NCBI GenBank assembly: GCA_964195485.1
Contig: CAXMPG010000082.1
Span: 282-64,281 of the forward strand
Direction: 5' to 3'
Length of the DNA stretch: 64,000 nt
Source: an uncultured Desulfobacterales bacterium
GTDB taxonomy: Bacteria; Bacteroidota; Bacteroidia; Flavobacteriales_G; Salibacteraceae
Below the pieces are notes generated by a model that was not told the origin of the DNA, did not search any database, and was given only the letters and a program-made list of their open reading frames with translations. Both the position numbers and the translations under genes were made by a program. Positions 1,487 through 18,640 of the stretch are shown here, one piece after another. Position 1 is the first letter of the stretch. Each line of letters starts with the position of its first letter.

Positions 1487-2083
1487 GTGGCTGCTGCGGT
1501 TTTGGTGATAGATCAATGGAGTAAAATCTGGGTCAAGACCAATATGTATTTGGGTCAAGAGTACCGTATTGCCGATTGGTTTATTATTCATTTTACGGAA
1601 AACCCAGGAATGGCTTTCGGTATGGAGTTGGGCGGAGATTATGGTAAGATTATTCTTAGTGTGTTCCGTATAGTAGCCGTTATTGGAATAGGATGGTACA
1701 TTGTTCGTTTAAGTAAAGAAAACGCTCACAAAGGCTTTTTAGTGGCTATGGGCTTTATTTTTTCTGGTGCTTTGGGTAATATATTGGACTCTGTCTTTTA
1801 CGGACAAGTTTTTACCGAGTCAACCGCACATATTGCACAGAAAGTAGCCTTCGGAAACGGATATGCTGATGTGTTACATGGTAGAGTAGTTGATATGTTG
1901 TATTTCCCGCTTTTTGATGGTTGGTTTCCAAGTTGGGTCCCATTTTGGGGAGACGAATATTTTATGTTCTTTAGACCCGTATTTAACATTGCGGACTCAG
2001 CCATAACTGTTGGCGTTATCCTCATCATTCTTTTTCAAAAGAAGTTCTTTATGGAAGAGATTAGTTCAGAAAAGACCGAGTAA
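1487..2083 (+). CDS. lspA: Lipoprotein signal peptidase II (true start may be upstream)
   Basis: IDQWSK, ENPGMAFG, GALGNILD, VVDM and FNIAD motifs. Confidence 0.93.
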   Translation: MAAAVLVIDQWSKIWVKTNMYLGQEYRIADWFIIHFTENPGMAFGMELGGDYGKIILSVFRIVAVIGIGWYIVRLSKENAHKGFLVAMGFIFSGALGNILDSVFYGQVFTESTAHIAQKVAFGNGYADVLHGRVVDMLYFPLFDGWFPSWVPFWGDEYFMFFRPVFNIADSAITVGVILIILFQKKFFMEEISSEKTE

Positions 2084-2095
2084 CCTATACTATCA

Positions 2096-2626
2096 TTGAA
2101 TAGATTTTTTAAAACACCCTTAATTGTAGTACTTGGAGGTATTATAGTCTTAATGGTAATCACATTTGGTAATGTGTTATTTGTTAAGCGGACACTTTTT
2201 ATTGAAGGTGAATTTCTTGCTTTGGGCACCAATTTTTACATTCCTCTAATCATCACAATTCTATGTGTATTTGGATTGGTTTTTCAATTACGTACCTTGA
2301 GAATTATTAATCATACCGATGTAATTGAAAATGAATCCTTAGATGATTTTTTGAAAGATGGTTTCAAAACGAAGAAAAGGAGAGTCTCCATATTTCTTTG
2401 GGCTGGAGAAATAATTTTAGCCCTAGGCTTATCGTTCATGGTAATAGCAATTACCGCTTCTTATTTGGAACGCTATCCCCTAAATGAGTTGCCAGAAAAC
2501 GGATTGAAGTACATTGGACCAGTCTTAATGTTCCTCTTACTTGTGTTGTTATTAATAGATCTGATAATGGTAAAAAGATTCCTGAAGAAGAATAAAAATC
2601 ATCTGTTAAATATTTCAGGTATCTAA
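2096..2626 (+). CDS. Hypothetical membrane protein (about 4 TM)
   Basis: 176-aa ORF with four hydrophobic segments, 12 nt downstream of lspA. Confidence 0.65.
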   Translation: MNRFFKTPLIVVLGGIIVLMVITFGNVLFVKRTLFIEGEFLALGTNFYIPLIITILCVFGLVFQLRTLRIINHTDVIENESLDDFLKDGFKTKKRRVSIFLWAGEIILALGLSFMVIAITASYLERYPLNELPENGLKYIGPVLMFLLLVLLLIDLIMVKRFLKKNKNHLLNISGI

Positions 2627-2736
2627 TAATCAGATCGTTGAAAGTTTTTAACATTTCTTAAAACAAAACAGACGCTAATCCAGCCAATAAAATTGCTTTA
2701 ATTCCGTATCTTGTGGAACGAATATAAAGGGAGCTT

Positions 2737-2925
2737 ATGTTAAAATTAACGAAATACGTTTTGGAAAAGGTAAGCTTTGATAAGAAGCTATTTAAAAAAG
2801 AACTTATCAAGGCAACTAAAGCCTTAAAAAAAGAAGAATTGATGTTATTATATACTTGGGGCTTAGTGGAATTTGCATCTGAACACCAAGAAATGTTAAG
2901 AGAGGTCGTTGCACCTTTCATTTAG
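2737..2925 (+). CDS. Small conserved-type Bacteroidota hypothetical protein (LxKVSFDxxLFxKELxKA)
   Basis: 62-aa ATG ORF followed by an intrinsic terminator. The motif resembles a small Bacteroidota protein family (recalled, not searched). Confidence 0.7.
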   Translation: MLKLTKYVLEKVSFDKKLFKKELIKATKALKKEELMLLYTWGLVEFASEHQEMLREVVAPFI

Positions 2926-2954
2926 AAATCAATTAAAAAACAATGTTTAATCAG

Positions 2955-2986
2955 GCCTGAAAGGAATTTATTCTTTTCAGGCTTTT
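2955..2986 (+). terminator. Intrinsic terminator
   Basis: GCCTGAAAGGAAT-TT-ATTCTTTTCAGGC hairpin followed by TTTT. Confidence 0.75.
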
Positions 2987-3072
2987 ATGTTATAACTATT
3001 TCATCCCGAGGGGATTTTATATTAACCTAATTTTCATCAGGAGCTTGTAAATTCCCCTTGGAGAGGAAGTTA

Positions 3073-3153
3073 AGTCCTGAAGGGACGTTATTTGTTAACG
3101 ATGGACGAAGTCCATCGAAAAAAAAGGAAACAGCTAATAGTCCTGAAGGGACG
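3073..3153. repeat. REP-like composite palindromic repeat
   Basis: AGTCCTGAAGGGACG at 3073-3087 and 3139-3153, flanking the hairpin CGATGGAC-GAA-GTCCATCG at 3099-3117. Confidence 0.7.
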
Positions 3154-3166
3154 AAATAACAGCAAG

Positions 3167-4105
3167 TCACTCCAACTTAGTATCACTAATAAACCCAATA
3201 TTCTTTTTTAACCCAGCGTATTTAGCGCGCATTACAGGAGTTCCGGCAAAAACGTTTAAGAAAACTTCATCGGTAATTTCTTGCCAATCTTTTTTATCAA
3301 AACCTTTCCAACCCAGGTATCTATTAAAAGCAGGTTCTGGAGTAGGAAGCGCATTTTTTGTCCACGGACAAACATCTTGGCAAATGTCACAGCCAAAAAT
3401 CCAATCGTCCATTTGACCTTTAAACTCGTTTGGAATTTGGCTTTTTAGTTCAATGGTTAAATATGAAATACACTTTTTTGCATCCAGTAAATAAGGCGTG
3501 TTAAGCGCATCGGTAGGACAAGCTTCTACGCACAAATTACAGGTTTTACAGAGGTCTTTTACGGGATGTGTTTCTTCCATCTCCACATCAATAATGAGCT
3601 CCGATAAAAAAAACTGTGATCCTTTTTTACGATTCAAAATCAGGGTGTTTTTACCTACCCAACCTAAACCGCTTTTCTCGGCCCAGGCTTTCTCCATAAC
3701 TGGGGCAGAATCTACAAAGGCTCTGCCGCTTACTTCGCCAATTTCCTCTTGTATGAAATGAAGTAATTCAATCAGCTTTTTTTTAAGGACCTTATGGTAA
3801 TCTTTTCCGTACGCATACTTCGAAATTTTGTAGGTATCGTCTATTGTTTGCGGTAAAGCGGGTAAATATTCAAACCCAAGAGAAATCACCGTTTTAGCGC
3901 CTTCCACAAGTTTGGTAGGGTCGGTTCTTTTATCAAAATGATTGGCCATCCAAGCCATTTCGCCATGCGAATTTTGGTTTAACCAGTTTTCCAGTATAGG
4001 AGCCTGCTTTTCTAAAAAACCAGCCTTAGAAACTCCAAATAAAGAGAATCCTAATTGATTTGCTTTCTGCTCAATTTGTAAGCTTTGTGAAGCCGTTAAA
4101 ATCAA
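3167..4105 (-). CDS. queG: tRNA epoxyqueuosine(34) reductase QueG
   Basis: [34 protein letters not shown] and [11 protein letters not shown] Fe-S motifs. Confidence 0.95.
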
Positions 4106-5124
4106 AATAAAGAAGATTGATCGTATGGTCTATTTCTCCCAAGGTGTTTGTAGGCTAACTCGGTTACCTCTCTACCTCGAGAAGTTCTTTGCATAAAGCC
4201 TTCTTGAATTAAAAACGGCTCATATACTTCTTCAATGGTTCCAGCATCTTCTCCAACAGCGGTAGAAATGGTGGTTAAACCTACTGGGCCACCTTTAAAC
4301 TTATCAATAATGGTAGATAAAATTCTATTATCCATTTCATCTAAACCATGCTTATCTACATTTAGAGCATCTAAGGAGTAATGAGTGATTTTTAAATCCA
4401 CTTTACCGGTTCCTTTTATTTGTGCAAAATCACGTACTCTACGTAACAAAGAATTGGTAATACGAGGAGTGCCGCGACTACGAGAAGCAATTTCATGTGC
4501 CGCTTCGTGTTCAATGCCTACATTCAAAATATCTGCCGAACGGGTAACGATAGTAGCCAACAAATCAGAATTGTAATACGCTAACCTAGAATTAATTCCA
4601 AAACGAGCTCTAAGGGGCGATGTAAGTGAACCTGAACGTGTGGTAGCACCAATTAAAGTAAAGGGCTCTAGTTCTATCTGAACGGTACGTGCGTTAGGTC
4701 CCGTATCAATCATGATGTCGATTTTATAATCCTCCATAGCCGAGTATAAAAACTCTTCTACGATAGGTTTTAATCGGTGTATTTCATCAATAAACAAAAC
4801 GTCATTTTCGCTTAGGTTAGTTAATAAACCGGCTAAATCACCGGGTTTATCAAGTACTGGTCCTGAAGTGATTTTGATATCCACCCCCAACTCATTAGCA
4901 ATGATATTGGCAAGCGTAGTTTTTCCTAAACCGGGAGGGCCATGCAATAAAACGTGATCTAATGCTTCCTCTCTTAGTTTAGCTGCCTCAACGAATACTT
5001 TTAGGTTCTCCACCACATGCTCCTGACCGGTAAAATCGCCAAAAGATTTTGGACGTAATACCTTTTCCAAGTCTTTATCCGTCCCTGAAAGATGTTCTGG
5101 ATCCGCATCTAAGTATTCATTCAT
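4102..5124 (-). CDS. ruvB: Holliday junction branch migration helicase RuvB
   Basis: [30 protein letters not shown] and YEPFL motifs. ATG at 5124 preferred over GTG at 5130. Confidence 0.97.
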
Positions 5125-5129
5125 AGCCA

Positions 5130-5137
5130 CAAATGTA
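5130..5137 (-). promoter_or_regulatory. Bacteroidota -7 promoter element (TACATTTG) for ruvB-queG
   Basis: Exact TAnnTTTG, ending 5 nt before the ATG. Confidence 0.6.
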
Positions 5138-5239
5138 ATACACCTACTGTGGAGAGTAGGATGCTTTTTTTAGGAATTACTGGAATTTGATAAAATATTC
5201 ATCATTCTCATTTCTTTGAGCGATAATAGGTAACGTTTT

Positions 5240-5896
5240 CTAGTTGATTTGGTAAATAATGTTTTGTTCAAAAGTGAGTTCTACTGTATGAATTTCTTGA
5301 AAGTTCTTGGCATTTTTTAGCGCAATAGCTTGAATTTTTTCCAATTCGCAAGCGTCTGATAAAATCATGAGCACTTTCGTTTTTTCTGTATTTATTTCTT
5401 GAAGCTGAAGAAATATTTTTTCGAAAAATTCGAAATTCTCACCACAAAACCACGCCTTTTCTTCCAAATTGAAGGGTTTTTTAGGATAATAGGGTGGGTT
5501 TATAAAAATATAATCAAAATCGTTTCCGTCTAATTTCTCAAACAAATCAGAAAATACCGTGTTAATCTGTAAGCCTTGTTTTGTGCTCACTTCCTTTAAA
5601 GAATCAAGTGCTATTTGATTAATATCAGATGCGGTTGTAACTGCTCCTATGGATGCGCTTAAGACAGACATAATACCACTACCACAACCCAATTCAAGAA
5701 CCTTCTTTCCTGTTAGGTTCAAAGACGAAATGTAATCCAGAAACACCTTGGTACTCACCGTGTTTTTTGGAGAAAAAACTCCCGGATGAACTATGGTAAA
5801 CACATCCTTAAATTGATATTTACGGGGCTTTCTGTGATACCAAAAATGATATCGTTTGTAAAACGGATGTGCTAGTTTTTGGATAAATTTTTTCAT
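5240..5896 (-). CDS. Class I SAM methyltransferase, HemK/MTS-like (NPPY motif)
   Basis: PGVFSP, VLELGCGSG and INPPYY motifs. Confidence 0.85.
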   Translation of the reverse strand: MKKFIQKLAHPFYKRYHFWYHRKPRKYQFKDVFTIVHPGVFSPKNTVSTKVFLDYISSLNLTGKKVLELGCGSGIMSVLSASIGAVTTASDINQIALDSLKEVSTKQGLQINTVFSDLFEKLDGNDFDYIFINPPYYPKKPFNLEEKAWFCGENFEFFEKIFLQLQEINTEKTKVLMILSDACELEKIQAIALKNAKNFQEIHTVELTFEQNIIYQIN

Positions 5897-5906
5897 AGCA
5901 TGCTTT

Positions 5907-7427
5907 TTACTCCGAGTAAAACCCTTCTATTTCGGGTTGACGATATTTCCATATTTTTTGAAGAACCTTAATTTCATAGGGATATTTATAGAACCCACTT
6001 TTATATCTCCAATTGGATGCTAATTGTAATGCTTTCTTCTTATACCCGGTAATTCTAAAATCTGAAACTGTTGGAAATTTCCCATTTAGTACCGTTTCAA
6101 AATTCATAATCACATCGATCATATACGGTTTTAACCAAGGTGTAAGCGGATTTTTCCGTAAATCAAAGTTTTCCCAACTTGGCGAAATCCAATCTTCTAA
6201 GTTCGATGGAAATTCAAAACCTGCATCTAATATTTGTTGGTATAAATCAGACCCTTCTGTAGGTGTAGGACTATAAAGATAAATAATGATTTCAGTATTT
6301 GGATTAATTTCTTTTATCTCTTTAATGAAATTAATATCCCATAAAATCTGCTTATACACTTGCTCTTCTGTATCGGCTGGCATCCCCAAAACAAACGACA
6401 TCTCCGGGATAATTCCAACGTTTTTCATGCGGAGTGCAAAATCCTTTATCATTTTGCCAGATTGAGTACCGCCCTTATTCATTTGTTTAAGGACTTCATC
6501 ATTACCCGTTTCAGCTCCTAAGAAAATCATAGTACAACCGGCTTGTTTCATTAATTTCAACTCCTCATCAGAGTACAAGTTAATAGTATCAATTCTTCCT
6601 TCGCCCCAATACTTTATACCATCATTCAAAATGAGTTTAGAGAATTCAACGACCCGCTTTTTGGAAGTGAAAAAGTTGTTGTCGTGAAACTCAATGGCAT
6701 TAATACCATATTTATCCTTGAAAAATTTCACATCCTCATACATACCTTCAGCTGATTTGCCTTTCCAGCTGGCATTAAAAATAGGCACAATTCCGCAAAA
6801 TGAACAGCTAAACGGACATCCCATACTGGAATGGTAAGACAACGTGGTAGAGCCCATAAAGGTTTTAGCCAAATAATCTTTGAGGGTATACTGCGTATCT
6901 AAATACCCATAAGGAAGTGGAGGAAGCGCATCTTGATCTAACAGCGCCTCTTTAGCCGTTTTAATGACTTTCTGATTTTCATCCGTATAAATTAGATTCT
7001 TAATTTTAGGTAAAGCCTCTAAGTCATTCGCTGCAAGCGCATCTAATAAGGATGGGAAAGCCACATCACCCGGGCCATTTATGATGTAATCTACGAAACC
7101 AGAATCTAAACAAACCTGGTGCTGATTAGACGGAAAATACCCTCCCCAAATAGTCACAACTTCAGGGAAATCTTGCTTTATTTTTTCTGTAAACGGAATA
7201 GCTTGTCGCAATTGCGGTCCCGGCATAACAGAAGAACAAAAGTAGTGGTACTCTCCTGTTTTTAGTAGGTCTAAAATCCTGTTTAATGGGTCAGATTCTA
7301 GGTTTCCATCCACAAAAATATATTCATATTTATTATGTATAGATGCACCTACTTGTAGAATAGAATTCGGGATTCTATGCTTTGAATTGGCGCTTCTTGG
7401 ATTGAATATGATTAGTTTATTGCCCAC
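5907..7427 (-). CDS. B12-binding domain radical SAM protein
   Basis: N-terminal cobalamin-binding-like region (WGGYFPS, INGPGD), SMGCPFSCSFC, HDNNFF and LGAETG. Confidence 0.9.
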   Translation of the reverse strand: MGNKLIIFNPRSANSKHRIPNSILQVGASIHNKYEYIFVDGNLESDPLNRILDLLKTGEYHYFCSSVMPGPQLRQAIPFTEKIKQDFPEVVTIWGGYFPSNQHQVCLDSGFVDYIINGPGDVAFPSLLDALAANDLEALPKIKNLIYTDENQKVIKTAKEALLDQDALPPLPYGYLDTQYTLKDYLAKTFMGSTTLSYHSSMGCPFSCSFCGIVPIFNASWKGKSAEGMYEDVKFFKDKYGINAIEFHDNNFFTSKKRVVEFSKLILNDGIKYWGEGRIDTINLYSDEELKLMKQAGCTMIFLGAETGNDEVLKQMNKGGTQSGKMIKDFALRMKNVGIIPEMSFVLGMPADTEEQVYKQILWDINFIKEIKEINPNTEIIIYLYSPTPTEGSDLYQQILDAGFEFPSNLEDWISPSWENFDLRKNPLTPWLKPYMIDVIMNFETVLNGKFPTVSDFRITGYKKKALQLASNWRYKSGFYKYPYEIKVLQKIWKYRQPEIEGFYSE

Positions 7428-9000
7428 TTGTTAGCTCTATTTTTCTTAATTCGTAAAATCCAACGCCTCGGTTTTTATCCGACAAAAACACAATTTGGTT
7501 TTCGTTAACTCGTGTCGCCATCTTTTTATTGGAATGGTCAAAAGTAAGTTGCTGGTTTTGATAATAAATCTGATTGTCAATAATTTCCACATTCTGAGTG
7601 TCTGTGGCTTGTTTCTTTATAGTGTACTCCGCGCGATTCCTTGCCGAACTATTCCAGTAATAGTATACTAATTTGTCAGTATGAATGGAGTAATCATAGG
7701 TTAAAATAGGCATGGAGAAATCCGTATATCGCTTGGAAGTATCCGTGGTTTCAGGAAGAAACAAAAAATAAATCCCTCCAGAAATAAGTGCGGTTAATGT
7801 GATGGCTTTTAACGGGATTTGTGATCTAAATAATACCATCAAACCAATGAATAGCCCCACCATTAGATACAACCGAAGGTAGTTAAATGGAAATGCATAA
7901 TCGCCTTTAAATGACGCTAAAGTCAAGAACGTTAGCGTCAAAATAATCAATGATTTCCCCCATGTTTGAATTTCTAGTTTTCCAGTAGAGAAATATAAAA
8001 ATGCCAATACAAGAAGAGAATAGGTGCTACCGTAAGGAGAGCTAATGAGGCTAATAAATAACCAAAATGAAAAACTAAAAAAGGACCCTTTCACTTTTTT
8101 GGTAATGAAAATGGCCACGCTTACTAGGAATAATTTTACGGCAAACATTAATCCAAGTACGCTATTAAAATATTGGCCAAGCCCGGTTGGATTTTCAATA
8201 GCATCAAATACCAAAATGTGTTTCAAGAACATAAATAGCGATTGATAATTAGCTACATACGCCCCTGCAATTTCGCCATTGTTAAATCGAGGTAAAGCTT
8301 CTAGAAAGAAAAATGCCCAAGGCGCTAATCCGGTTACACTGATGGAAATAAGTGTCAAAATGGCAACGGAAAGCAGTAAGTATCCAACCGCTTTAAAATG
8401 GTGCTTAAACAATAGAAAACCAATTAAAACAATAGGGAATACCTTCAGCGAAATGGCTAATCCCCACCATAGTGCGGTTCTTATGAATTGATTTTTTTGG
8501 TAAGCCAAGAAGCCTTCGGAAAGGAGAAAAAACAGCAAAAAGTAGACCTGTCCAAAAAGTAAATTATTTTTAATAGGAACTAAAAATACGAGGGGGAAAA
8601 TCAAAACATATCCCCAATGAATATTCAAATGACTTGCCAATCGTTTTACGGAAACCATTAATAGTAAAAGGCTAATGAGGTTAAATACCAGTTTAGCTGT
8701 AGCAAGTGGTAAAAACGTAAAAGGGACAAAAAATAGTGCTAAAAATGGCGTGTTTGGCGCAAAACTTAAAAACTGATTTACGTATCCTAAATCAGCAACG
8801 GTTTGATTAAAATGGAACGGAAAATAAATTTCAGAAGTGAAAATTCCCTGCTTAATAAATAGTGCACTGAAATAGTAATTTCCAAAATCATGTGTAGGGA
8901 AACTATGCGGGGGAATGACATAGTATCCACCGATAATCACGAAAAAAATCAATGGTAAATTGGACTTAATCCAAAGCGTTATGTCTTTGAGATTAGTCAA
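7417..9000 (-). CDS. GT87/DUF2029-like polytopic membrane glycosyltransferase with soluble C-terminal domain
   Basis: HDFGNYY, PNTPF, FGQ, LKVFP and NYQS motifs with many TM helices. Confidence 0.7.
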   Translation of the reverse strand: MTNLKDITLWIKSNLPLIFFVIIGGYYVIPPHSFPTHDFGNYYFSALFIKQGIFTSEIYFPFHFNQTVADLGYVNQFLSFAPNTPFLALFFVPFTFLPLATAKLVFNLISLLLLMVSVKRLASHLNIHWGYVLIFPLVFLVPIKNNLLFGQVYFLLFFLLSEGFLAYQKNQFIRTALWWGLAISLKVFPIVLIGFLLFKHHFKAVGYLLLSVAILTLISISVTGLAPWAFFFLEALPRFNNGEIAGAYVANYQSLFMFLKHILVFDAIENPTGLGQYFNSVLGLMFAVKLFLVSVAIFITKKVKGSFFSFSFWLFISLISSPYGSTYSLLVLAFLYFSTGKLEIQTWGKSLIILTLTFLTLASFKGDYAFPFNYLRLYLMVGLFIGLMVLFRSQIPLKAITLTALISGGIYFLFLPETTDTSKRYTDFSMPILTYDYSIHTDKLVYYYWNSSARNRAEYTIKKQATDTQNVEIIDNQIYYQNQQLTFDHSNKKMATRVNENQIVFLSDKNRGVGFYELRKIELTSGQ

Positions 9001-10123
9001 TGTAATTTACTTCGAATGGTGATTTTTCGCGTACAGAACCGGAAGTGAGTAAACCCCTAACAGGAGCATGTTTCTCTATATCGTTCCGGTTATAACCAAG
9101 AGGTAAAAATGGAAACTCTGGGTAATTAAATCTAGTCTCATTGGTTAATAATTGCGTCACTTCGTTAATGGTCATGTTCCATTCATTCGCCAGGCGCATT
9201 GGGCTAGGCTGTTTAAACATAATGTACTGTAATTCCATTTGCGTATGTGCTTGTTTTTGGGAGAAGTCAACACCATCTGGTAAGAATGCCTGTTTTGAAT
9301 TCAGTTGACTTCTAAAATGAACTAACGTATCTTGGAGTTGTTGGAAGGTTAAGAACCCAGCATAATCATTTTGGGTTTTAAACATGGGGTTTACATTGCT
9401 TTCATGACACCACATGCACTTAGCGGGTTTTCCTGCATTACTAGCATCGGTCAACGCAGCAGAAATTCTTTGGCTATCTGAATCATAAATGGCGTATTTA
9501 AATTGGCCATTGTCCATCAATTCCATAGTTTCAAATTCTAAAATACTTCCCGTAATGGAGTCAATTTCGGTAGAGATAAAAAGTTGGTTTAAACCTTTCT
9601 GCTCAGAAAACTGAAGGGTACGATGATGGTCTGAAATAGAAGAATTATTGACGAAACCTGTTTCTGAAAGCAATGAGTAATTGGCCATTTGTTGGTCTAA
9701 TTTTGCTGGAATTCCTGTGATTCGGTAGTAATGGTTAGATGCGCCAATGAGCAAGGTGATGTAGCGGCCTAAGTCAATCGAGTTGTTTTGAATGTACTCC
9801 TGTGAACGGATAATGGATTGATGCAAGGCTCCAATGGATTCTTGTGCCTGAGTTGAAAAGCCTAAGGAGGCAGTTTTTAGCTGTATATTGTTACTACTTA
9901 CTTCAATTCCACTAGCGTTAGCATTGGTGTTATGCGCACCTACATGCGAAAGACACCAAAACAATCCGGTAAGGGCATCTTCTATATTTTCATTGGGGTA
10001 AGATGGGTTCCATTTTAGATTTATTTCTGCTGGATTTTGTGAAACCGGAGAAACAGAATCATGAATACAAGACCCTATGCTAAGGATAGAAATGACTACC
10101 AAAGAAGCAAATAAGATCCTCAT
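8993..10123 (-). CDS. Hypothetical lipoprotein with single CxxCH (putative c-type heme) motif
   Basis: Lipobox ILSIGS-C and KPAKCMWCHE. Confidence 0.7.
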   Translation of the reverse strand: MRILFASLVVISILSIGSCIHDSVSPVSQNPAEINLKWNPSYPNENIEDALTGLFWCLSHVGAHNTNANASGIEVSSNNIQLKTASLGFSTQAQESIGALHQSIIRSQEYIQNNSIDLGRYITLLIGASNHYYRITGIPAKLDQQMANYSLLSETGFVNNSSISDHHRTLQFSEQKGLNQLFISTEIDSITGSILEFETMELMDNGQFKYAIYDSDSQRISAALTDASNAGKPAKCMWCHESNVNPMFKTQNDYAGFLTFQQLQDTLVHFRSQLNSKQAFLPDGVDFSQKQAHTQMELQYIMFKQPSPMRLANEWNMTINEVTQLLTNETRFNYPEFPFLPLGYNRNDIEKHAPVRGLLTSGSVREKSPFEVNYID

Positions 10124-11487
10124 TTTGTGAATTGCATTAACAGCAAAGCCGCAAGCGATTTTGCCTTTCTTTTTGAAGCCTTTAGAAAGTTCTTTTCGGT
10201 ATAAGACTCCACTTCATTTACAATATAGCGCACCGCATAATCATAGTATTTACGCGAATACGTTCGGGTGAAATCAATATCTCTATCCGTACTGGATTGC
10301 CAATCTAATTGAGTGATTATTTTACTCGATATTTGTTCGTATAGCCCCGTTCCCTTTATTGGATAGGCTACTGTTATGGTAAAGTTATCTGGATTAGCCT
10401 CTTTTAAATACTGGACTGTTTTGTGAATATCCTCCACCGTTTCGGTAGGATAGCCGACCATAATAAAGGTGCCTGTTTCAATTCCAAATTCCTTGGTTCT
10501 GATGATCATATCACGCACTAAATTAATATCAACGCGCCTATCCATTTCATCAATTATTCTTTGCGAGCCACTTTCCGCACCTATCCAAATTTTGGCGCAG
10601 CCCATTTCTTTGAGCTGTTGCAAAACCGTATCATTTAAACGTTCTGCACGGGTAATAATTTCAAATGGAATCTTAATTTTTCGGGTAGTAAACTCTTTAT
10701 GTAACCCGGCTAACCACTTGTGATTTACTGTGAAAACGTCATCTACAAACCAGAGTGAATCCGGATTATAGGTGGTTATTAAGCCGGCTATTTCATCGGC
10801 AACCATTGCTGGAGAACGTCTCCGGTAACTTTGTCCATAAACCGCAGTACTGCACCATTTACAGGTGTACGGACAACCACGTTGGGTAGAAACGTTCAGG
10901 GTATTTGTACCATGATGCGCTTTCCAGGCAGTAAGGTATTTACTTAAATCAATCGCTCCCCGATCTGGTTCGGGGAATTCGTCCATGTCTTTTACTTTTA
11001 GACGGGCGGGATTGGTGATAAATGCATCATCCTTTAAAAATGCAATGCCGGTAATTTCGGTAATTGATATATTTTGAGTAATATTTTTACTCAATTCTAA
11101 CATGGTTTCTTCTCCTTCGCCTATAGCGATGATATCTGCCCCAGCGCGTAAATAATTCTCTGCATTAAACGTGACATCGGGTCCGCCCAAAACAATTTTT
11201 GATTGCTTTAGTTCAGATTGCGATTTCACCCATTTCATTAATCGAATGACATTTACTTTAGTCATTAGATTAGCGTAAATCGCTATGATTTTAGGTTGGT
11301 GTTTTAAAATGCTTTCTTGTAGAGATGCATATTCAGAAAACGTAGAATCAAACACGGTAACGCGCATTCCATACTTTTTCAAGTAGGCAGAAACGTAAAG
11401 TAAACCCAAAGGCGGATAAGGGCGCATAATTTTTTGCTCCAGCTCATCTTCCTTAATGAAATACCCATGTGTTAGTAAAACGTCCAT
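10120..11487 (-). CDS. B12-binding domain radical SAM protein
   Basis: YPPLGLLY, VLGGP, GEGE, RGCPYTCKWC, FVDDVF and IGAESGS. Confidence 0.92.
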   Translation of the reverse strand: MDVLLTHGYFIKEDELEQKIMRPYPPLGLLYVSAYLKKYGMRVTVFDSTFSEYASLQESILKHQPKIIAIYANLMTKVNVIRLMKWVKSQSELKQSKIVLGGPDVTFNAENYLRAGADIIAIGEGEETMLELSKNITQNISITEITGIAFLKDDAFITNPARLKVKDMDEFPEPDRGAIDLSKYLTAWKAHHGTNTLNVSTQRGCPYTCKWCSTAVYGQSYRRRSPAMVADEIAGLITTYNPDSLWFVDDVFTVNHKWLAGLHKEFTTRKIKIPFEIITRAERLNDTVLQQLKEMGCAKIWIGAESGSQRIIDEMDRRVDINLVRDMIIRTKEFGIETGTFIMVGYPTETVEDIHKTVQYLKEANPDNFTITVAYPIKGTGLYEQISSKIITQLDWQSSTDRDIDFTRTYSRKYYDYAVRYIVNEVESYTEKNFLKASKRKAKSLAALLLMQFTK

Positions 11488-12273
11488 TTATTTTTTCTGT
11501 AAGCAAATTAAAAAATGGTCTGAAACCGAAGCCAAATTTTGGCTTTTTTCTCGCTTTTTATCCATATTTTGTAATTTTAGTAGCGTTTTTGGTCTTTTTT
11601 GAAAAAACGGATTCAAATAAGAAGGTGGCACAAAAAACCCAACAGGCTGAACACGATTCGTATTAAACCCACTAGCCATTTTTATAATATGCGTAGGAGA
11701 ATAGTAAAAAGTTTTCACATCTCGCCCATCCACATTCGCCAAAACGCCCGATTTTGAACCTCTTCTAAAAGCTTTCGAAAATTGGAATTTTGCAGAGAAA
11801 TAAAGTGTTTCCCAAACGCAAAAACTTGGCATCATAACCAAAATTAGCTTTCCGTTAGGAGTGAGTTTATTTTTTGCATTAGCGAAAAAAGCCAAAAGTT
11901 CATTTGTATCCAAGCAATTCAACCCCCCGAAATTGGAGAAAATCAAGTCATACTTTTTTTCAACTTGGTGCGCGTCCAGCTGTGTGATGTCTAAAACCGT
12001 ACAACTCACGTTTGGTAAATGAGCTGTTTTTTGCGTAGCTATTTTCACCATTTCTGGCGAAATATCAGTAGCCAATACCGTGGCGCCCATTTCTGCTAAA
12101 TTCAAAGCATCTTGTCCTGTACCACAATTAATTTCAAGGATGCTTAAATTTTTGAAATCAGAAATACATTCCGAAATCCCATTAAAAACTAATTCACGTT
12201 GAGCCATGCCAATAGGCGAAGAAGTGAAGTCATCATCGTATTCGCGTGCGATATGGTCAAAACTAGTCGCCAT
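11488..12273 (-). CDS. Class I SAM-dependent methyltransferase
   Basis: ILEINCGTGQDA, DISPEM and YDLIFSNFGGLNC. Confidence 0.88.
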   Translation of the reverse strand: MATSFDHIAREYDDDFTSSPIGMAQRELVFNGISECISDFKNLSILEINCGTGQDALNLAEMGATVLATDISPEMVKIATQKTAHLPNVSCTVLDITQLDAHQVEKKYDLIFSNFGGLNCLDTNELLAFFANAKNKLTPNGKLILVMMPSFCVWETLYFSAKFQFSKAFRRGSKSGVLANVDGRDVKTFYYSPTHIIKMASGFNTNRVQPVGFFVPPSYLNPFFQKRPKTLLKLQNMDKKREKSQNLASVSDHFLICLQKK

Positions 12274-13721
12274 TATTTGGTGTTACTGAGCGTTTTTAAC
12301 CGGGCAGATAATTGATTAATGATTGGTTTGTAATAGGCTCTTTTTAGTAATGCTTTCGCTCCCTTAGGAGATAAAAATCCGTTTTCAGAAATAGACTGTG
12401 AAGCCTGTGCGTCTCTAAATATTTTGTGCACGTACCTATGCAGTGTTTTGTAATATTCTTGATTGAACGTGTTTTGAAACATCAACGCTAAATCATCCGA
12501 ATCGGTCCAATTTGCTTTTTCGCTCAATTGGGATTGCACCAAATCGTAAAACTTGGTTCCTGGTAACGGATACGATACACTCACTCCAATGTCATCGGGC
12601 ATAAAATCCAGTAACATTTGAATAGTAGCATCAATGTCTTCTTTCGTTTCATCCAAGTAACCAAACTGTAAAAAGTAGGCTACGCGTACTCCTTTCGACT
12701 GCAACAATTCCGTAGATTCTTTAATCTGCGCAATGGTTGTTCCTTTGTCCATCGCATCCAGTACTTTTTGCGAACCACTTTCTGCGCCAATCCAAGTTTC
12801 GTATAAACCAGATGCCACTAAAGCATCGATATTATCTTCTTTTAAAAGCAAATCAGCGCGACTTTGAATCTTGTATTTTATGGTAACCTCTTTGGATTTT
12901 AATTCGGCATTAAAATCCTGAACCCACCCTGGTTTGAGTCCAAAAATATCATCGCACATCCAAAATGTAGATACGCCAAATTCGTCACGCAACATTTTCA
13001 CTTCATCCACCACTCTTTCTACAGAACGGCTATTATATCGCTGTCCGTAAATGGGTTTTGCACACCAATTACAATGAAAAGGACACCCTCTGGTAGTGGC
13101 TATATTGAGTGCGAATTTATGTCCTTTGTTCTCCCAAACTTCACGGTAAGATTCGATATCAATCAAATCCCAGGCAGGTTGTGGTAAACTATCTAAATCT
13201 TTAATTACCGTTCTTTTACCGGTGTTAATTACCTTTTCGTTTTCTTTAAAACAAAGTCCTTTTACATCTTCTAGCGCCTCGCCTGATATCCAATTATTCA
13301 ACGTTTCCAATAAAGAAACTTCGCCTTCACCTAATAAAATTACATCTGCTCCATGGGTCAAATACTTTTCGAAATGATCGGTAGAGTCAGAGCCAGAAAC
13401 AATAATCTTACATCCGTACTTTTTAGCGATTTTCATCATTGCAAAAGCCGCTTCGCGCATCGTGGTAAGGCACATTTTGGTGAGGTAGTTAAAGCCATCA
13501 TCATAGAGTACCAAATACTCCGGTTTTTGCGCTGCAATTATTTTTTCAATTTCATCCGGCCCGTCTTTTAAACAGACATCAAAAAGAGAAACGTCATACC
13601 CATTTTCGCGTAAATGAGCTGCGGCATAAATAGTACCTAAAGGCGGATAGGGCATCCCCATTTCCCACTGTTTAGCGTCTAATTTATAGTAATAACTATG
13701 ACTGAATAATACCTTAGTCAT
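12273..13721 (-). CDS. B12-binding domain radical SAM protein
   Basis: YPPLGTIY, GEGE, RGCPFHCNWC, CDDIF and IGAESGS. Confidence 0.92.
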   Translation of the reverse strand: MTKVLFSHSYYYKLDAKQWEMGMPYPPLGTIYAAAHLRENGYDVSLFDVCLKDGPDEIEKIIAAQKPEYLVLYDDGFNYLTKMCLTTMREAAFAMMKIAKKYGCKIIVSGSDSTDHFEKYLTHGADVILLGEGEVSLLETLNNWISGEALEDVKGLCFKENEKVINTGKRTVIKDLDSLPQPAWDLIDIESYREVWENKGHKFALNIATTRGCPFHCNWCAKPIYGQRYNSRSVERVVDEVKMLRDEFGVSTFWMCDDIFGLKPGWVQDFNAELKSKEVTIKYKIQSRADLLLKEDNIDALVASGLYETWIGAESGSQKVLDAMDKGTTIAQIKESTELLQSKGVRVAYFLQFGYLDETKEDIDATIQMLLDFMPDDIGVSVSYPLPGTKFYDLVQSQLSEKANWTDSDDLALMFQNTFNQEYYKTLHRYVHKIFRDAQASQSISENGFLSPKGAKALLKRAYYKPIINQLSARLKTLSNTK

Positions 13722-14656
13722 TACGCATTTTTTAAGTGTAAATTACTGGAGGTCTGTGCTAAAACCTCTAGTTTAATCATGCGTTCATCATATCCATTAA
13801 GCACTCTTTTTTGAAAGTGACTTGGGTGATGTTTTGAAACCCGCTTGGTGGTATTTAACGCAATTTTAAAATCTTCCTCGTTCATATTATGGAACTTTCT
13901 TTTCCAACGTTTTAGCGTGATATTCATGAAGAAATCATCCATTATGTCTCCCAATTTGGTATCCAAAATGGGTTCGGTTATCTTTTGAAATACACTTTTT
14001 TCTACATCTTTCGCTTCAAAACATTTATCGGTAGGTTGCGTATAATATTCTTTTACCCAAGTGTTATTTGCTAACAAATCAGCATATAATTTGGTGTTAA
14101 TCATGGGTAATAAAGTGATTAGCTCCGTAGCTGTAAATCGGTTTTTCTGTTCAATTTCAAGCGTTTCTTCATCAATCAAATAGTTGATGCAGAAGTATTT
14201 TCTAGAGTTTAATAGAAATATTTTTTTGTATAAAATGAGAAGGGTTCTGGCCACCCATAACCGGTTTGGAGTGGTCACAATAAAGTAGTCAATATCCCCA
14301 TCTTCGCCCATGGTACCTTTGGATAAGGACCCGGAAATAAACACTCCTTTTACGTACGGAAACTTTCCGATGAGGGCTGATTTTTTGTAGGCCTGATCTT
14401 CATACTCTTTTGCCCGTAAATCATCTGCTTTCCGCTGAATGGCTAATAGTACATCATCGCGTAAAGCGTAAAACTCATCCAGTTTAAAAATGATTTTTTG
14501 GTCTATTAATACCGTTAATTGCGCAGCTAATTCTTCTTTTTTTGAGAAATGAGAATACCTCAAAATCTCCTCAAAATTTAAAGGAAAATTAAACACATCG
14601 TAATAGGCGAGCGCCTGTAAAATTCGAATAGTATGTGTTTGATGCGTAATATTCAT
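13721..14656 (-). CDS. Pol-beta superfamily nucleotidyltransferase-domain protein
   Basis: hG[S]-x-DxD signature: FISGSLSKG...DGDIDYF. N-terminal YYDVFNFPL region. Confidence 0.75.
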   Translation of the reverse strand: MNITHQTHTIRILQALAYYDVFNFPLNFEEILRYSHFSKKEELAAQLTVLIDQKIIFKLDEFYALRDDVLLAIQRKADDLRAKEYEDQAYKKSALIGKFPYVKGVFISGSLSKGTMGEDGDIDYFIVTTPNRLWVARTLLILYKKIFLLNSRKYFCINYLIDEETLEIEQKNRFTATELITLLPMINTKLYADLLANNTWVKEYYTQPTDKCFEAKDVEKSVFQKITEPILDTKLGDIMDDFFMNITLKRWKRKFHNMNEEDFKIALNTTKRVSKHHPSHFQKRVLNGYDERMIKLEVLAQTSSNLHLKNA

Positions 14657-14675
14657 TCATGTTGATTAGTGCTTA

Positions 14676-14683
14676 CAAACCTA
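14676..14683 (-). promoter_or_regulatory. -7 promoter element (TAGGTTTG) for the radical SAM operon
   Basis: Exact TAnnTTTG on the minus strand, about 20 nt upstream of the ATG at 14656. Confidence 0.55.
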
Positions 14684-15088
14684 CCCAAACTAAACAGAAT
14701 TTGAAACTGACCTTTGAGTAATTAATCAATTCTTATATAAGAAAATATTTACATGGGTTTTGATGCGTTGAATCACGCTATAAAAGCTAGTTCTGTGATT
14801 CGTTATACGTACTGATGTTTAGTTGTTTATGCTCTATTAAATCCCTGTTTTCAAGAGTTTTAGGATAGCTGGATAAAGGGATGTTGGTGAGAGTTTTCAC
14901 CCTAAAAGTAATGCCTCTAATATGACCTCTAGCAGAACAATTTGATGAAACTAGTCATCATTGGGTTTTTGAGGTCAAATAGGCAATAGAAAGTAGCTTG
15001 GAAAACATTTCTTACATCAATATTAAACTTCATGTGAATCTAGAGTATATCATGATAATTTCCGGTTTTTTAAACTCTAAAATACATA

Positions 15089-15096
15089 TACATTTG
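15089..15096 (+). promoter_or_regulatory. -7 promoter element (TACATTTG)
   Basis: Exact TAnnTTTG. Implies the gene starts at ATG 15114 rather than GTG 15096. Confidence 0.55.
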
Positions 15097-15113
15097 TGAC
15101 AAATACTTTAGTT

Positions 15114-16586
15114 ATGGATTTAGAGAAATATTTCGAACCGTTTCGTAATAATATCATTGGTGACAAACAACATTTTACCACCCCTTTTGGAGAAAAGAGG
15201 ATTGTTTATGCTGATTGGACGGCAAGTGGTCGTTTGTATGGTCCAATTGAAAAAGTGTTAAGTGAAGATTTTGGACCTTTTGTTGGAAATACGCATACGG
15301 AGACATCGGTTACTGGATGTACCATGACGATTGCATTTCACAAATCTTTAGAAATAATAAAGAATCATGTAAACGCTTCAAAAGACGATTATATTATTGC
15401 GTGCGAATCAGGTATGACAGGCGTGATTAATAAGTTTCAAAGAATTTTAGGATTTAAAATTCACGAGAAATATAAAGAACAAATTACGATTGCAGAAGAA
15501 GATAGACCGGTAGTTTTTATTACCCATATGGAACACCATTCTAATCATACTTCTTGGCTAGAAACCATTGTAACTTTAGAAATAATTCATGAAACGTCAG
15601 AGGGGTTACCTGATTTGGAGAACTTAAAAGTTTTATTGGCAAAATATAAGAATAGAAAAACTAAAATTGCCAGTATTTCAGCGTGCTCAAACGTGACTGG
15701 TGTGGTTCTTCCGTATTTTGAAATATCAAAATTAATGCATCAAAACGGAGGGGTTTGTTTCGTAGACTTCGCCTGTTCTGCGCCTTATGTAGATATGGAT
15801 ATGCACCCAGAAGATGAAGAAGCCGTTTTAGACGCTATTTTCTTTTCTCCACATAAGTTTTTGGGTGGTCCTGGAACTCCAGGAATCATGATTTTTAATA
15901 AGAAATTTTATACAAATCAAGTACCAGACATTTCAGGCGGTGGAACCGTTTCTTGGACCAACCCTTGGGGTGGTCGTCATTATTTTGATGATGTAGAAGT
16001 GCGTGAGGCAGGAGGTACTCCTCCATTTATGCAAACCATTCGTGCGGCACTTTCGGTGCGGTTGAAAGACAAAATGGGTGTAGAAAACATTATCAAACGG
16101 GAAGAAGAAATTCTAGAATCTATTTTTAATCGGATTTGTGGAATTAAGAACCTTCATATTCTAGCTAAGGATATTAAGCATAGAATGGGGGTGATTTCTT
16201 TTTATATTGATGATTTACATTTCAATTTAGGGGTTAAATTGCTGAACGATCGTTATGGTATTCAAATGCGTGGAGGTTGTTCTTGCGCAGGTACTTACGG
16301 CCATATTTTGCTTGATATTCCGCAAAAATTATCCAATAAAATTACCAAGCAGATTGATAAGGGAGATTTCACCATGAAACCAGGTTGGATTAGGTTTAGT
16401 ATTCATCCTACCATGACTAATGATGAGGTAAATTACATCACTATGGCGCTAAATGAATTAGCAGAAAGTCATAAAGAATGGGCTAACGATTACATCTACG
16501 ATGCAGATAGCAATGAGTTTTCACACAAAGAGGGTGAGGTTAATATTTCTGCTAAAGTAGATCGCATTTTTGATAATATTCTGTAA
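15114..16586 (+). CDS. Aminotransferase class V PLP enzyme (cysteine desulfurase/selenocysteine lyase-like)
   Basis: YADWTASGR, EHHSN, SPHKFLGG (PLP Lys) and RGGCSCAG (Cys). Confidence 0.88.
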   Translation: MDLEKYFEPFRNNIIGDKQHFTTPFGEKRIVYADWTASGRLYGPIEKVLSEDFGPFVGNTHTETSVTGCTMTIAFHKSLEIIKNHVNASKDDYIIACESGMTGVINKFQRILGFKIHEKYKEQITIAEEDRPVVFITHMEHHSNHTSWLETIVTLEIIHETSEGLPDLENLKVLLAKYKNRKTKIASISACSNVTGVVLPYFEISKLMHQNGGVCFVDFACSAPYVDMDMHPEDEEAVLDAIFFSPHKFLGGPGTPGIMIFNKKFYTNQVPDISGGGTVSWTNPWGGRHYFDDVEVREAGGTPPFMQTIRAALSVRLKDKMGVENIIKREEEILESIFNRICGIKNLHILAKDIKHRMGVISFYIDDLHFNLGVKLLNDRYGIQMRGGCSCAGTYGHILLDIPQKLSNKITKQIDKGDFTMKPGWIRFSIHPTMTNDEVNYITMALNELAESHKEWANDYIYDADSNEFSHKEGEVNISAKVDRIFDNIL

Positions 16587-16655
16587 TAGTATTGTTATCC
16601 AGTAAGGAGGATAAAGGTTTTATTACGACCATAGTTTTTATTTATTTATACATAA

Positions 16656-17051
16656 ATGGCAGGAAAAGTAGAGAATTTAGGTGGTGTGTTTATTTATTCG
16701 GCTGATTCAAAAAAATTAGCAGAATGGTATCAAGAAAATTTAGGCCTTACGCATGAAACTTGGGGTGATAGCGGAGTGTATTACATTTCATTTCCGTATC
16801 AAGACGAGGCGGGTGCGAAAAGGTATTTTGCATGGTCAATAATGCCTTCTAAAGAAAAGCTACCTTCTAAGTCACCCAAAGTGTTTACCATTAATTTACG
16901 GGTGAGTGATATTGATGATTTAGTTTCAAATTTAGTATCAAAAGGAGTAACTGTAAAACCTGTGGAAACGCATAATGAGGGTAAGTTTGCGTGGTGCGAA
17001 GATGTAGAAGGAAATCCCATTGAACTTTGGGAAGATGTGGTAAATAAATAG
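16656..17051 (+). CDS. VOC/glyoxalase family protein
   Basis: GGVFIY...WYQENLGL, INLRVSDID and GKFAWCEDVEGNPIELWE. Confidence 0.85.
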   Translation: MAGKVENLGGVFIYSADSKKLAEWYQENLGLTHETWGDSGVYYISFPYQDEAGAKRYFAWSIMPSKEKLPSKSPKVFTINLRVSDIDDLVSNLVSKGVTVKPVETHNEGKFAWCEDVEGNPIELWEDVVNK

Positions 17052-17059
17052 TGTTACTG

Positions 17060-18223
17060 ATGCGTATACTCTCATTCATAAAGAAGCCATCTACCATTGT
17101 AATACTGTTAACAGCTGTTATTATTGGCATAATTACCGCTCAAAACATTCTACTTTCTGATTTTGGCTTTGAGACTATTATGAAGTCGTTTTATAACAAC
17201 TACCTCATTTTTAAGAATTCTCATTTTCATCTTCTTTCGAATCAAAACCTATATGGTTCATATAATGGTATTCAAATTGATTATTTCAAATATAGCCCTA
17301 CTTTCTCATTGCTTTTTGGACTGTTTGCCTACCTACCAGATTATTTAGGTCTGTTCTTATGGAACGGATTAAACGCATTGGTTTTTTATGCGATTTGGCA
17401 AGTGAAATTCCCATTTGTAAAGAATAAATTTTGGATTTGGGCTTTTGTTTTATTAGAGTTTATTACCAATATCCAGAGCTCACAGAGTAACGGGTTAATG
17501 GCTGGTTTAATGTTATTAGCATATGTTTTCTTAGAGCGTAAAAACGTAGCTCTAGCTACATTAATGGTCGTTCTTTCTATCTACTTAAAGTTATTTGGCT
17601 TAGTCACTTTTGCGTTGTTTTTACTGTACCCTGATAAATTAAAAGCCATTGGTTATACTCTTTTTTGGATGGCCTTATTATTCCTATTACCTATAGTAGT
17701 TGTTTCGCCATCAGATTTAATAGCACAATACCAAAATTGGTTAAACCTATTGATTAACGACAAATCGGTGGCTTATAGTCCTTCTGTGATGGGGTGGTTG
17801 GAATCATGGTTTAACCTTCACCCTTCTTCTGGGGTACTTACTGGAATTGGGGTGTTATTATTCTTGATTCCGTTTGTAAAGATTAAACAATATGCGAACC
17901 CTATTTTTAGACAATTAATTTTAGCGTCTATACTTATTTGGGTCGTAATTTTTAACCATAAAGCGGAGTCTCCCACATTTATAATTGCGGTAACGGGGGT
18001 TGCCATATGGTTGTTTAGCCAAAAAATGAATAGGAATCATATGGTATTGATGATTTTAACGTTGATACTCACTCAATTATCGCCAACTGATATTTTTCCG
18101 GTATCTATAAGAGAAGGTTTTTTTCTACCCTATGTAATCAAGGTTTTTCCAATAATTTTAGTGTGGCTGAAAATACTGTATGACGCTACTTTTCAGGATT
18201 GGGAAGAGAAACTGGAAGCTTAG
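17060..18223 (+). CDS. GT87/DUF2029 membrane glycosyltransferase
   Basis: YNNYLIFK, FKYSPTF, QSN, LKLFG and FNHKAESPTF in a polytopic membrane protein. Confidence 0.8.
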   Translation: MRILSFIKKPSTIVILLTAVIIGIITAQNILLSDFGFETIMKSFYNNYLIFKNSHFHLLSNQNLYGSYNGIQIDYFKYSPTFSLLFGLFAYLPDYLGLFLWNGLNALVFYAIWQVKFPFVKNKFWIWAFVLLEFITNIQSSQSNGLMAGLMLLAYVFLERKNVALATLMVVLSIYLKLFGLVTFALFLLYPDKLKAIGYTLFWMALLFLLPIVVVSPSDLIAQYQNWLNLLINDKSVAYSPSVMGWLESWFNLHPSSGVLTGIGVLLFLIPFVKIKQYANPIFRQLILASILIWVVIFNHKAESPTFIIAVTGVAIWLFSQKMNRNHMVLMILTLILTQLSPTDIFPVSIREGFFLPYVIKVFPIILVWLKILYDATFQDWEEKLEA

Positions 18224-18249
18224 GTATTTTTTGAATTCCCCCTAACCCC

Positions 18250-18640
18250 CGGTCCTCCAAAACCATCTGGTATAAATGTACTGGAAGGCCTTATTAAATC
18301 ACGAAAAATTGATTTTATAGTTCTGCCATTAAACTTTGCTAAAACCGTTACGATTACTCCACGCTTAATCACTCTATAATGGGGTTTTTATGTTCCATTC
18401 TTGTCTTATAGTACGGTCGTTTTTTCTTTTTATACGGATACTTGTTTTCTAATGTCCCTTCAATATAACTTTCATCAACTTTGATAATTCCAGATAAAAT
18501 TTGATCCGATTCATTCATTGCTAATCTTAATCTTCTTTGAATAAAGTAAGCGGTATTTCGATTAACATCTAAGTAACGAACTAACTGCAAAGAGGAAATA
18601 CCTTTTTTTGCATCACAGATTAGGTTAATGGCTAAAAGCT
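18250..18640 (-). pseudogene. IS1595-family (ISXO2-like) transposase remnant
   Basis: Minus strand reads AKKGISSLQLVRYLDVNRNTAYFIQRRLRLAM...LSGIIKVDESYI, then a stop/frameshift and a further fragment (TIKSIFRDLIRPSSTFIPDGFG). No start codon and no zinc ribbon. Confidence 0.8.

Follow-up and report, generated by a model that had tools for sequence, protein, structure and literature searches.

A conserved nucleotidyltransferase, radical SAM and methyltransferase gene cassette of Bacteroidota with a possible role in surface glycoconjugate assembly

A 64,000-nucleotide stretch of a Flavobacteriales-like metagenome-assembled genome (MAG; contig CAXMPG010000082.1, positions 282 to 64,281 of the forward strand; hereafter the window) contains a run of eight minus-strand genes, here g1 to g8, which encode a nucleotidyltransferase (NTase), three radical S-adenosylmethionine (SAM) enzymes (rSAM A, B and C), two methyltransferases, a heme c-motif lipoprotein and a membrane glycosyltransferase of the GT87 family. 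We read these eight genes as one operon, composed of a conserved four-gene cassette (the NTase, rSAM A, the first methyltransferase and rSAM B) and two optional modules. The interpretation that we favor, and that we hold with belief and doubt in about equal parts, is that the system makes or tailors one fixed, unusual methylated residue of a polyprenyl-phosphate-linked surface glycoconjugate, the chemistry being inferred from sequence. The preliminary description of this DNA recognized no characterized pathway with such a gene set, and we concur: no described pathway or paper with this gene set was found in the literature, none of the NCBIfam equivalog cut-offs was reached, and the cassette falls into none of the named enzyme families with which it was compared.

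The case for the cassette comes from comparison of 86 loci related to the operon, in which open reading frames (ORFs) were called and clustered. The order NTase > rSAM > methyltransferase > rSAM is kept in about 77-80 of the 86 loci and was found in Flavobacteriales, Saprospiraceae, Chitinophagales and Ignavibacteriaceae; the gene that follows the NTase is rSAM A in about 80 loci, and a methyltransferase of the g3 type lies between the two rSAM genes in 77. The other genes are sporadic, with the lipoprotein present in 24 loci, rSAM C in 29, the g8-type methyltransferase with an NPPY motif in 19 and a long GT87 in 10. Their distribution divides them into two predicted optional modules, namely the heme lipoprotein with a glycosyltransferase of the GT-C fold, and rSAM C with the NPPY-type methyltransferase. 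In favor of this division, rSAM C is co-resident in all 19 loci with a g8-type enzyme, and of 22 loci with the lipoprotein 18 also have a GT-C gene, versus 10 of 51 loci without it, although these loci are related and the comparison is not a statistical test. Thus, the expectation that the genes would co-occur across genomes holds for the four-gene core, but not for a fixed set of eight. Across the genome collection, the NTase profile has matches from at least 559 species; among 397 sampled high-quality Bacteroidota genomes it has a single match in each of 46 (about 12%), with a patchy distribution across families.

Gene neighborhoods and natural fusions place the system in the assembly of an envelope glycoconjugate, which was one of the two destinations suggested in the preliminary description. 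Variable neighbors of the core include glycosyltransferases of the GT4/GT1 and GT2 types, GT-C proteins (PMT_2, GT87 and a 516-residue family with no Pfam match and weak EpsG-like similarity), a fused ATP-binding cassette (ABC) exporter, flippase-like proteins with 10 transmembrane (TM) segments, polysaccharide deacetylases, an acetyltransferase, FkbM methyltransferases, SGNH/AlgX-like and NKWYS proteins, sulfotransferases and additional B12-type and SPASM radical SAM enzymes. Families of glycan type are found in 45 of the 65 loci with at least 9 kb of downstream sequence. A small GT2, a GT87 and a 10-TM protein are grouped in other loci, and on a different contig the source genome encodes a GT2 that shares 62% identity with the GT2 accompanying GT87 elsewhere. 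As this gene adjoins one for a sugar-1-phosphate nucleotidyltransferase, the GT87 enzymes could plausibly be supplied with a polyprenyl-phosphate-sugar donor. An exhaustive profile search recovered fusions of the NTase to Bac_transf (phosphoglycosyl transferase, PGT), GT4, class I methyltransferase and short-chain dehydrogenase/reductase (SDR) epimerase/dehydratase domains, and the NTase domains of these four fused proteins are 40-48% identical to ordinary family members; a word-indexed database search had given no fused forms, a failure of sensitivity given that the exhaustive search found them. Fusions seen in the genomes join GT4 to the NTase, the NTase to rSAM A (in one locus, L088) and two methyltransferases to each other. 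Members of the NTase family also occur in Wzx/Wzy/PGT loci devoid of rSAM genes. This distribution and the fusions argue that the NTase is a glycan-locus protein in its own right, with the rSAM-methyltransferase-rSAM unit attached to it.

The NTase matches NTP_transf_2 (PF01909) with 29.8 bits against a Pfam cut-off of 21, and Gly109, Asp121 and Asp123 of its G[SG]...DxD motif are kept in at least 90% of the 86 homologs. Three family motifs, FCxNY, NxFTAxE and SKHHPxxFQ, show little or no variation, and this constancy, together with that of GS...DxD, favors an enzyme whose single substrate is conserved. The predicted structure (predicted local distance difference test score, pLDDT, 83.5) begins with a classic N-terminal winged helix, continues through a long helix into a Pol-beta core and ends in a helical C-terminal region; in this model the winged helix resembles DNA-binding winged helices (Z 9-10), and for the core the best match is ANT(4'), with Z 8.6 over 113 residues. 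A sequence search of the PDB with the NTase profile gave marginal MNT matches only. With 311 residues, as against about 100-150, and no HEPN gene in the window operon, the protein falls outside the MNT-HEPN systems. It shares with ANT(4'), AadA, LinB and the MNT antitoxins a common Pol-beta NTase core bearing GS...DxD, but is set apart from them by the added winged helix, its own invariant motifs, the missing HEPN partner and its location in a biosynthetic operon. A predicted complex of the NTase with rSAM A scored 0.05 and was used neither for nor against their pairing.

The radical SAM domain (PF04055) was detected in all three rSAMs at 57-67 bits (56.9 bits for rSAM C), with the CxxxCxxC motif at position 213 in A (CPFHCNWC), 205 in B and 204 in C. 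The claim that all three are B12-type enzymes was borne out for A and B, which exceed the cut-off of the N-terminal B12-binding domain PF02310 (36.5 and 62.8 bits, respectively, against 32.1), but rSAM C with 26.7 bits stays below it. rSAM A and rSAM B are paralogs with about 31% identity. Mean column identity of rSAM A across 19 orthologs is 70%, as would be expected of an enzyme with one fixed substrate. No NCBIfam cut-off was reached for any of the named B12-rSAM equivalogs BchE, HpnJ, HpnR, PhpK, MgmA, ladderane rSAM, AprD4 and BzaD: the best scores were 173 against 481 for BchE, 139 against 600 for PhpK, 136 against 578 for HpnJ and 114 against 360 for the MgmA family, and across the rSAMs HpnJ gave 101-136 bits against a cut-off of 577.6. 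The nearest solved chain is 9CCB (E 1.6e-17), which is MgmA (PMC11796369); the other nearest solved relatives are AprD4, CysS, OxsB and TokK, and all five are distant. Other B12-type proteins are encoded in the source genome, and CobS was not found in this MAG (2.85 Mb, 81% complete).

Of the two methyltransferases, g3 matches Methyltransf_25 (61.9 bits) and g8 matches PF05175 (56 bits). Motif IV of g8, NPP[YF] (NPPY or NPPF), is kept in 19 of 19 homologs. An NPPY-type motif marks methyltransferases acting on amino or amide nitrogen. The NCBIfam cut-offs for PrmC, RsmC and PrmA proper were not attained by g8 (PrmC 50 against 199, RsmC 48 against 295), and its best model there, PRK14968.1-3, gave 81 against a cut-off of 162.

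The lipoprotein g5 has no match in Pfam or NCBIfam. Its lipobox cysteine, Cys19, is kept in 22 of 24 homologs and CxWCHE in all 24, the latter as part of an invariant GKPxKCxWCHE motif. In the predicted structure (pLDDT 86.6) the central domain, residues 136-270, resembles cytochrome c'-beta/P460 proteins (8brk, Z 7.9; 7s5o, Z 7.0; 6hiu, Z 6.7). A wide structural search of the model returned c'-beta/P460 proteins as its top five matches (Z 5.1-7.9), with unrelated folds at 5.1 or less; a Foldseek search gave no match below E 0.001. As in that family, the CxxCH motif follows a beta sheet in the model of g5, but g5 differs in its length of 376 residues, its extra N- and C-terminal helical domains, its lipid anchor, the lack of a sequence-level match, the middling Z-scores and its presence in a glycan locus rather than a nitrogen-oxide context. 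Two proteins (P0270 and P0271), mutually 64% identical and both in the canonical context, are fusions of rSAM B with the lipoprotein in which the hydrophobic signal segment is kept as a linker between the halves. This arrangement suggests that rSAM B is located at the membrane, opposite a periplasmic heme domain.

The GT87 domain (PF09594, cut-off 25) scores 76.4 bits in g6, and 62.2 bits in a second GT87 protein encoded by a divergent operon upstream of g1. g6 has about 10 TM segments, and a His37-Asp38 pair in its first outer loop is conserved in 10 long-GT87 homologs. GT87 is the PimE family, and we know of no characterized GT87 from Bacteroidota. The motifs and domains that the preliminary description had reported, namely CxxxCxxC in all three rSAMs, the lipobox and CxxCH of the lipoprotein, and the GT87 domain, were each recovered. 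A close relative, locus L099, in which the NTase is 83% identical, shares the whole neighborhood but lacks the long GT87. Between its lipoprotein and rSAM C genes (L099:15736-15801) lies a 70-nt remnant, 81% identical to the 3' end of the GT87 gene at window positions 7499-7568. The remnant shows that the deletion was recent, and the long GT87 is therefore ancestral here and yet dispensable.

From the gene content, conservation, neighborhoods and fusions observed above we infer the following chemical steps. The residue would be C-methylated or rearranged, and in addition O/N-methylated. The NTase may attach a nucleotide handle to a precursor or lipid-linked intermediate, or alternatively may transfer a phospho-group from such a handle in the manner of a LicD-like phospho-transferase. 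rSAM A and rSAM B, on the cytoplasmic side of the membrane, would then act on C-H bonds by radical chemistry, with class I methyltransferases supplying heteroatom methyl groups, and rSAM C and the NPPY enzyme would provide optional extra C- and N-modification. After flipping, GT87 and other GT-C enzymes would add sugars from polyprenyl-phosphate donors in the periplasm, where the P460-like heme lipoprotein could act beside them. A more detailed version, which we offer as a tentative and rather doubtful one, envisages a new route to a building block of the surface glycan, in which two or three cobalamin rSAMs remodel an NTase-tethered substrate at the inner membrane face, with one rSAM coupled through a single membrane-spanning segment to the P460-like heme c lipoprotein, which in turn would work with the GT-C enzyme. 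If true, this would be the first case of a bacterial envelope glycan made on a radical-SAM/heme assembly line, and GT87 proteins outside Actinobacteria would gain their first function.

Several points weigh against the proposal of a surface glycoconjugate residue. The product, the substrate and the activity of all the operon proteins are predictions, and as the rSAM scores are far below family cut-offs, methylation is by this measure indistinguishable from ring contraction, dehydration or oxidation. The window operon itself contains no cytoplasmic glycosyltransferase, PGT or flippase, so that the case for a glycan context is built chiefly on other genomes, the pair of GT87 genes and the fusions. 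The loci come from related genomes and are not independent samples. Finally, the winged helix of the NTase and its constant first position leave room for a regulatory or protein-modifying role.

Among the alternatives, an unlikely one has a membrane lipid rather than a glycan as the target: the B12-rSAMs would either methylate or cyclize a chain of isoprenoid or acyl type, or contract the ring of a sugar head group, like HpnJ or calditol synthase. In this scheme the head group would be made by the glycosyltransferases, with the ABC exporter serving as lipid flippase. The best NCBIfam similarities do include HpnJ (121-136 bits), the ladderane-lipid rSAM (117-133 bits) and HpnR, yet all three are far under the respective cut-offs. 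Certain loci join a glycosyltransferase, a polysaccharide deacetylase and rSAMs in the manner of HpnI-HpnK-HpnJ, a compact Tenacibaculum locus (L057) consists of the core with only a methyltransferase, a GT4 and an MsbA-like ABC exporter, and the fusion of rSAM B with the lipoprotein puts this enzyme at the membrane; against these observations, the loci lack hopanoid, sterol and ether-lipid genes, and the fusions to a PGT and an SDR epimerase, as well as the Wzx/Wzy contexts, point to assembly of a polyprenyl-diphosphate-linked glycan. We regard as quite unlikely the proposal that the NTase is a locus-specific regulator or a protein-AMPylating factor, with the rSAMs acting on a substrate that carries no nucleotide. 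It would account for the invariable position of the NTase as first gene, for the match of its N-terminal domain to DNA-binding winged helices and for the protein AMPylators DrrA and MNT among its nearest solved folds in Foldseek; low-scoring language-model look-alikes (0.75-0.78) also include archaeal clusters with winged helix-turn-helix-type (AbiEi_4, HxlR) and MNT-like domains. However, the family is very strongly conserved outside the winged helix, with the three motifs invariant, no HEPN partner is adjacent, and the fusion partners are enzymes (PGT, GT4, SDR, methyltransferase, rSAM A), never regulators.

An exported diffusible small molecule, aminoglycoside-, nucleoside- or phosphonate-like and made along the lines of the gentamicin or fosfomycin pathways, is highly unlikely in our estimate. 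The similarity of rSAM B to the PhpK family (139 bits) and the presence of the ABC exporter in 16 loci are in its favor, as are two features of the known pathways: those for aminoglycosides typically pair B12-rSAM C-methylases with class I N-methyltransferases, and Fom3 requires a cytidylylated substrate. But PEP mutase, 2-deoxy-scyllo-inosose synthase, non-ribosomal peptide synthetases (NRPS) and polyketide synthases (PKS) are all absent, and the GT-C enzymes, flippase-like proteins, periplasmic lipoprotein and PGT fusions belong to the envelope rather than to secondary metabolism. The same fusions and the GT-C and flippase context disfavor the other destination named in the preliminary description, release as a nucleoside-like metabolite. 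The weakest alternative, to which we attach very little probability, is a cluster for a ribosomally synthesized and post-translationally modified peptide (RiPP), whose B12-rSAMs would C-methylate a peptide as in polytheonamide or bottromycin. Its basis is a weak similarity to models of RiPP C-methyltransferases (ApyD, 88-128 bits; rSAM_ocin_1, 77-88 bits). The view that neither NRPS/PKS genes nor a precursor peptide are to be found is upheld, and no family of small ORFs occurs in more than 3 of the 86 loci. Moreover, polA is directly upstream of the NTase gene in many loci (in the Flavobacterium locus L005 it ends 41 nt 5' of that gene), there is no protease, RiPP recognition element (RRE) or YcaO, and the fusions are to glycan enzymes.

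The proposed glycoconjugate-tailoring system can be compared with several known ones. As in Fom1/Fom3 of fosfomycin synthesis, a nucleotidyl handle would precede the action of a cobalamin-dependent radical SAM enzyme at an unactivated carbon, and the logic may be shared; the fusion of the NTase with rSAM A is consistent with such a coupling and fits nucleotidylation before radical SAM chemistry. The two systems differ in that the NTase here has a predicted Pol-beta fold with a winged helix, there is no PEP mutase or phosphonate gene, and the context is that of a glycan. The cytidylyltransferase fold of Fom1 is Rossmann-like. The gentamicin enzymes GenK/GenD1 and GenN/GenL, likened here by description, similarly combine several B12-rSAMs with class I methyltransferases able to C- and N-methylate an amino sugar, and g8 has the NPPY motif of amino-group methyltransferases, whereas aminocyclitol genes are missing from our loci and the products are probably envelope-bound. 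In the HpnI-HpnK-HpnJ pathway (hopanoid cyclitol ether) and with the archaeal calditol synthase, a glycosyltransferase, a deacetylase and a B12-type rSAM remodel a lipid-linked sugar; some of the loci have this mix, but the HpnJ scores are far below the cut-off, hopanoid genes are absent and the window has no deacetylase. The polyprenyl-phosphate-sugar/GT-C systems Ppm1-PimE, ArnC-ArnT and GtrA/B/Gtr* recall the association of GT2 with GT87 in other loci, and the same GT2 type is present elsewhere in the source genome; here, in contrast, the GT87 gene is translationally coupled to those for the heme lipoprotein and a radical SAM enzyme.

Cobalamin-dependent rSAMs are known in the synthesis of antibiotics, cofactors, pigments and membrane lipids, and to our knowledge none has been described for bacterial surface polysaccharides or protein O-glycans. 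The presence of the cassette in roughly one in eight sampled Bacteroidota genomes would imply a widespread B12-dependent surface decoration of undescribed chemistry. Such a decoration could influence how phages and grazers recognize the cells, as well as marine polysaccharide chemistry and the need for vitamin B12 at the ecological level. In addition, three uncharacterized enzyme families become open to study: NTases with a winged helix, P460-like lipoproteins and the GT87 proteins of Bacteroidota. The carriers include the cultured marine and fish-associated genera Tenacibaculum, Flavobacterium, Dokdonia and Lacinutrix, and the question is therefore directly testable. Among the cultured carriers are Tenacibaculum ovolyticum DSM 18103, T. 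soleae, Flavobacterium humi, F. gelidilacus DSM 15343, Aureisphaera galaxeae, Parvicella tangerina and bacterium SCSIO 12643.

In the window, all eight ORFs and all seven junctions were re-read and agree with the preliminary description of eight coupled genes (Table 1). The core genes are joined by TAATG overlaps at 13721 and 12273 and by an abutting TAA|ATG at 11488/11487, and the core is joined to g5 by an ATGA overlap at 10120-10123; the junctions from g5 to g8 are an 8-nt overlap (TTGACTAA), an 11-nt overlap (GTGGGCAATAA) and a 10-nt gap. The TTG start of g6 and the GTG start of g7 match the N-termini of the respective homologs. A single promoter had been proposed for the operon, and the TAGGTTTG box is indeed present 20 nt 5' of g1; the TAnnTTTG motif, however, shows no enrichment across the window, where 62 matches compare with 91 expected, and it is therefore only the position of the box that speaks for it. 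A sigma-70 promoter scan is uninformative for Bacteroidota promoters. A search with Rfam found no riboswitch, for cobalamin or otherwise, in positions 1-20000. No minus-strand terminator was scored 3' of g8; the hairpin ahead of ruvB, together with a separate TACATTTG box of that gene at 5130-5137, is consistent with the operon ending at 5240. The latter box overlaps the listed GTG start of ruvB, whose true start is probably the ATG at ~5124.

Table 1. Coordinates of the operon and of adjoining features in the window
Feature	Position	Strand	Basis or remark
Promoter-like box TAGGTTTG, Bacteroidota-type -7	14676-14683	-	20 nt 5' of g1 start codon
g1, predicted winged-helix and Pol-beta-fold NTase, 311 aa, first core gene	13721-14656	-	NTP_transf_2
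g2, rSAM A, B12-binding and Radical_SAM, 482 aa, core	12273-13721	-	PF02310, PF04055
g3, class I SAM methyltransferase, 261 aa, core	11488-12273	-	Methyltransf_25
g4, rSAM B, B12-binding and Radical_SAM, 455 aa, core	10120-11487	-	PF02310, PF04055
g5, heme c-motif lipoprotein, 376 aa, optional	8993-10123	-	CxWCHE and lipobox
g6, GT87-family GT-C membrane glycosyltransferase, 527 aa, optional	7417-9000	-	PF09594
g7, rSAM C, 506 aa, weak B12-binding domain, optional	5907-7427	-	PF04055; PF02310 below cut-off
g8, MTS/HemK-like NPPY methyltransferase, 218 aa, optional	5240-5896	-	PF05175
Hairpin between g8 and ruvB, probable operon end	5143-5160	not assigned
Divergent operon: class V aminotransferase-fold (496 aa), glyoxalase-fold (131 aa) and second GT87 (390 aa) genes	15096-18223	+	Pfam

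The divergent operon may be part of the system, but the linkage is weak: this arrangement was found only in the close relatives L006, L007 and L099, and a short contig (L008) has the aminotransferase-fold gene alone. That gene was considered as a recurrent partner of the cassette and rejected, as a class V aminotransferase-fold gene near the NTase in locus L095 has merely a generic likeness to it (25% identity over 102 residues). Within 15089-15117 (plus strand), a TACATTTG -7-like box overlaps the GTG at which the aminotransferase-fold ORF was taken to begin (15096); translation probably starts instead at the ATG some 21 nt further downstream. About 400 bp separate the two divergent promoter-like boxes. 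In L099 (9020-9898), L001 and L018 a divergent sulfotransferase-like gene (about 270-290 aa) is situated between the aminotransferase-fold and NTase genes; no remnant of it is detectable in the 440-bp intergenic region of the window (14657-15095).

The cassette is also present on a contig labeled as a Bifidobacterium breve MAG (L041) and on one from a Methylacidiphilales MAG (L015). The flanks of the former consist of Flavobacterium-type genes (polA and its upstream set), and both contigs probably reflect mis-binning and not transfer.

The window has a G+C content of 36%, and sequencing runs containing this stretch come from marine sediment, seawater and brine metagenomes. Downstream of the operon lie the housekeeping genes ruvB and queG, identified by Pfam. 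Directly 3' of queG, at 3073-3117 on the minus strand, there is a match to the Rfam small RNA family Acido-Lenti-1 (34.7 bits, just below the gathering score of 37; E 1.2e-4). On the other side, the divergent GT87 operon adjoins a block at 19045-25728 that encodes a LuxR-type regulator, a MacB-type ABC system (an ATPase, two FtsX/MacB permeases and an HlyD adaptor) and an HWE/HisKA_2 histidine kinase, and the synteny of this block is kept in L099.

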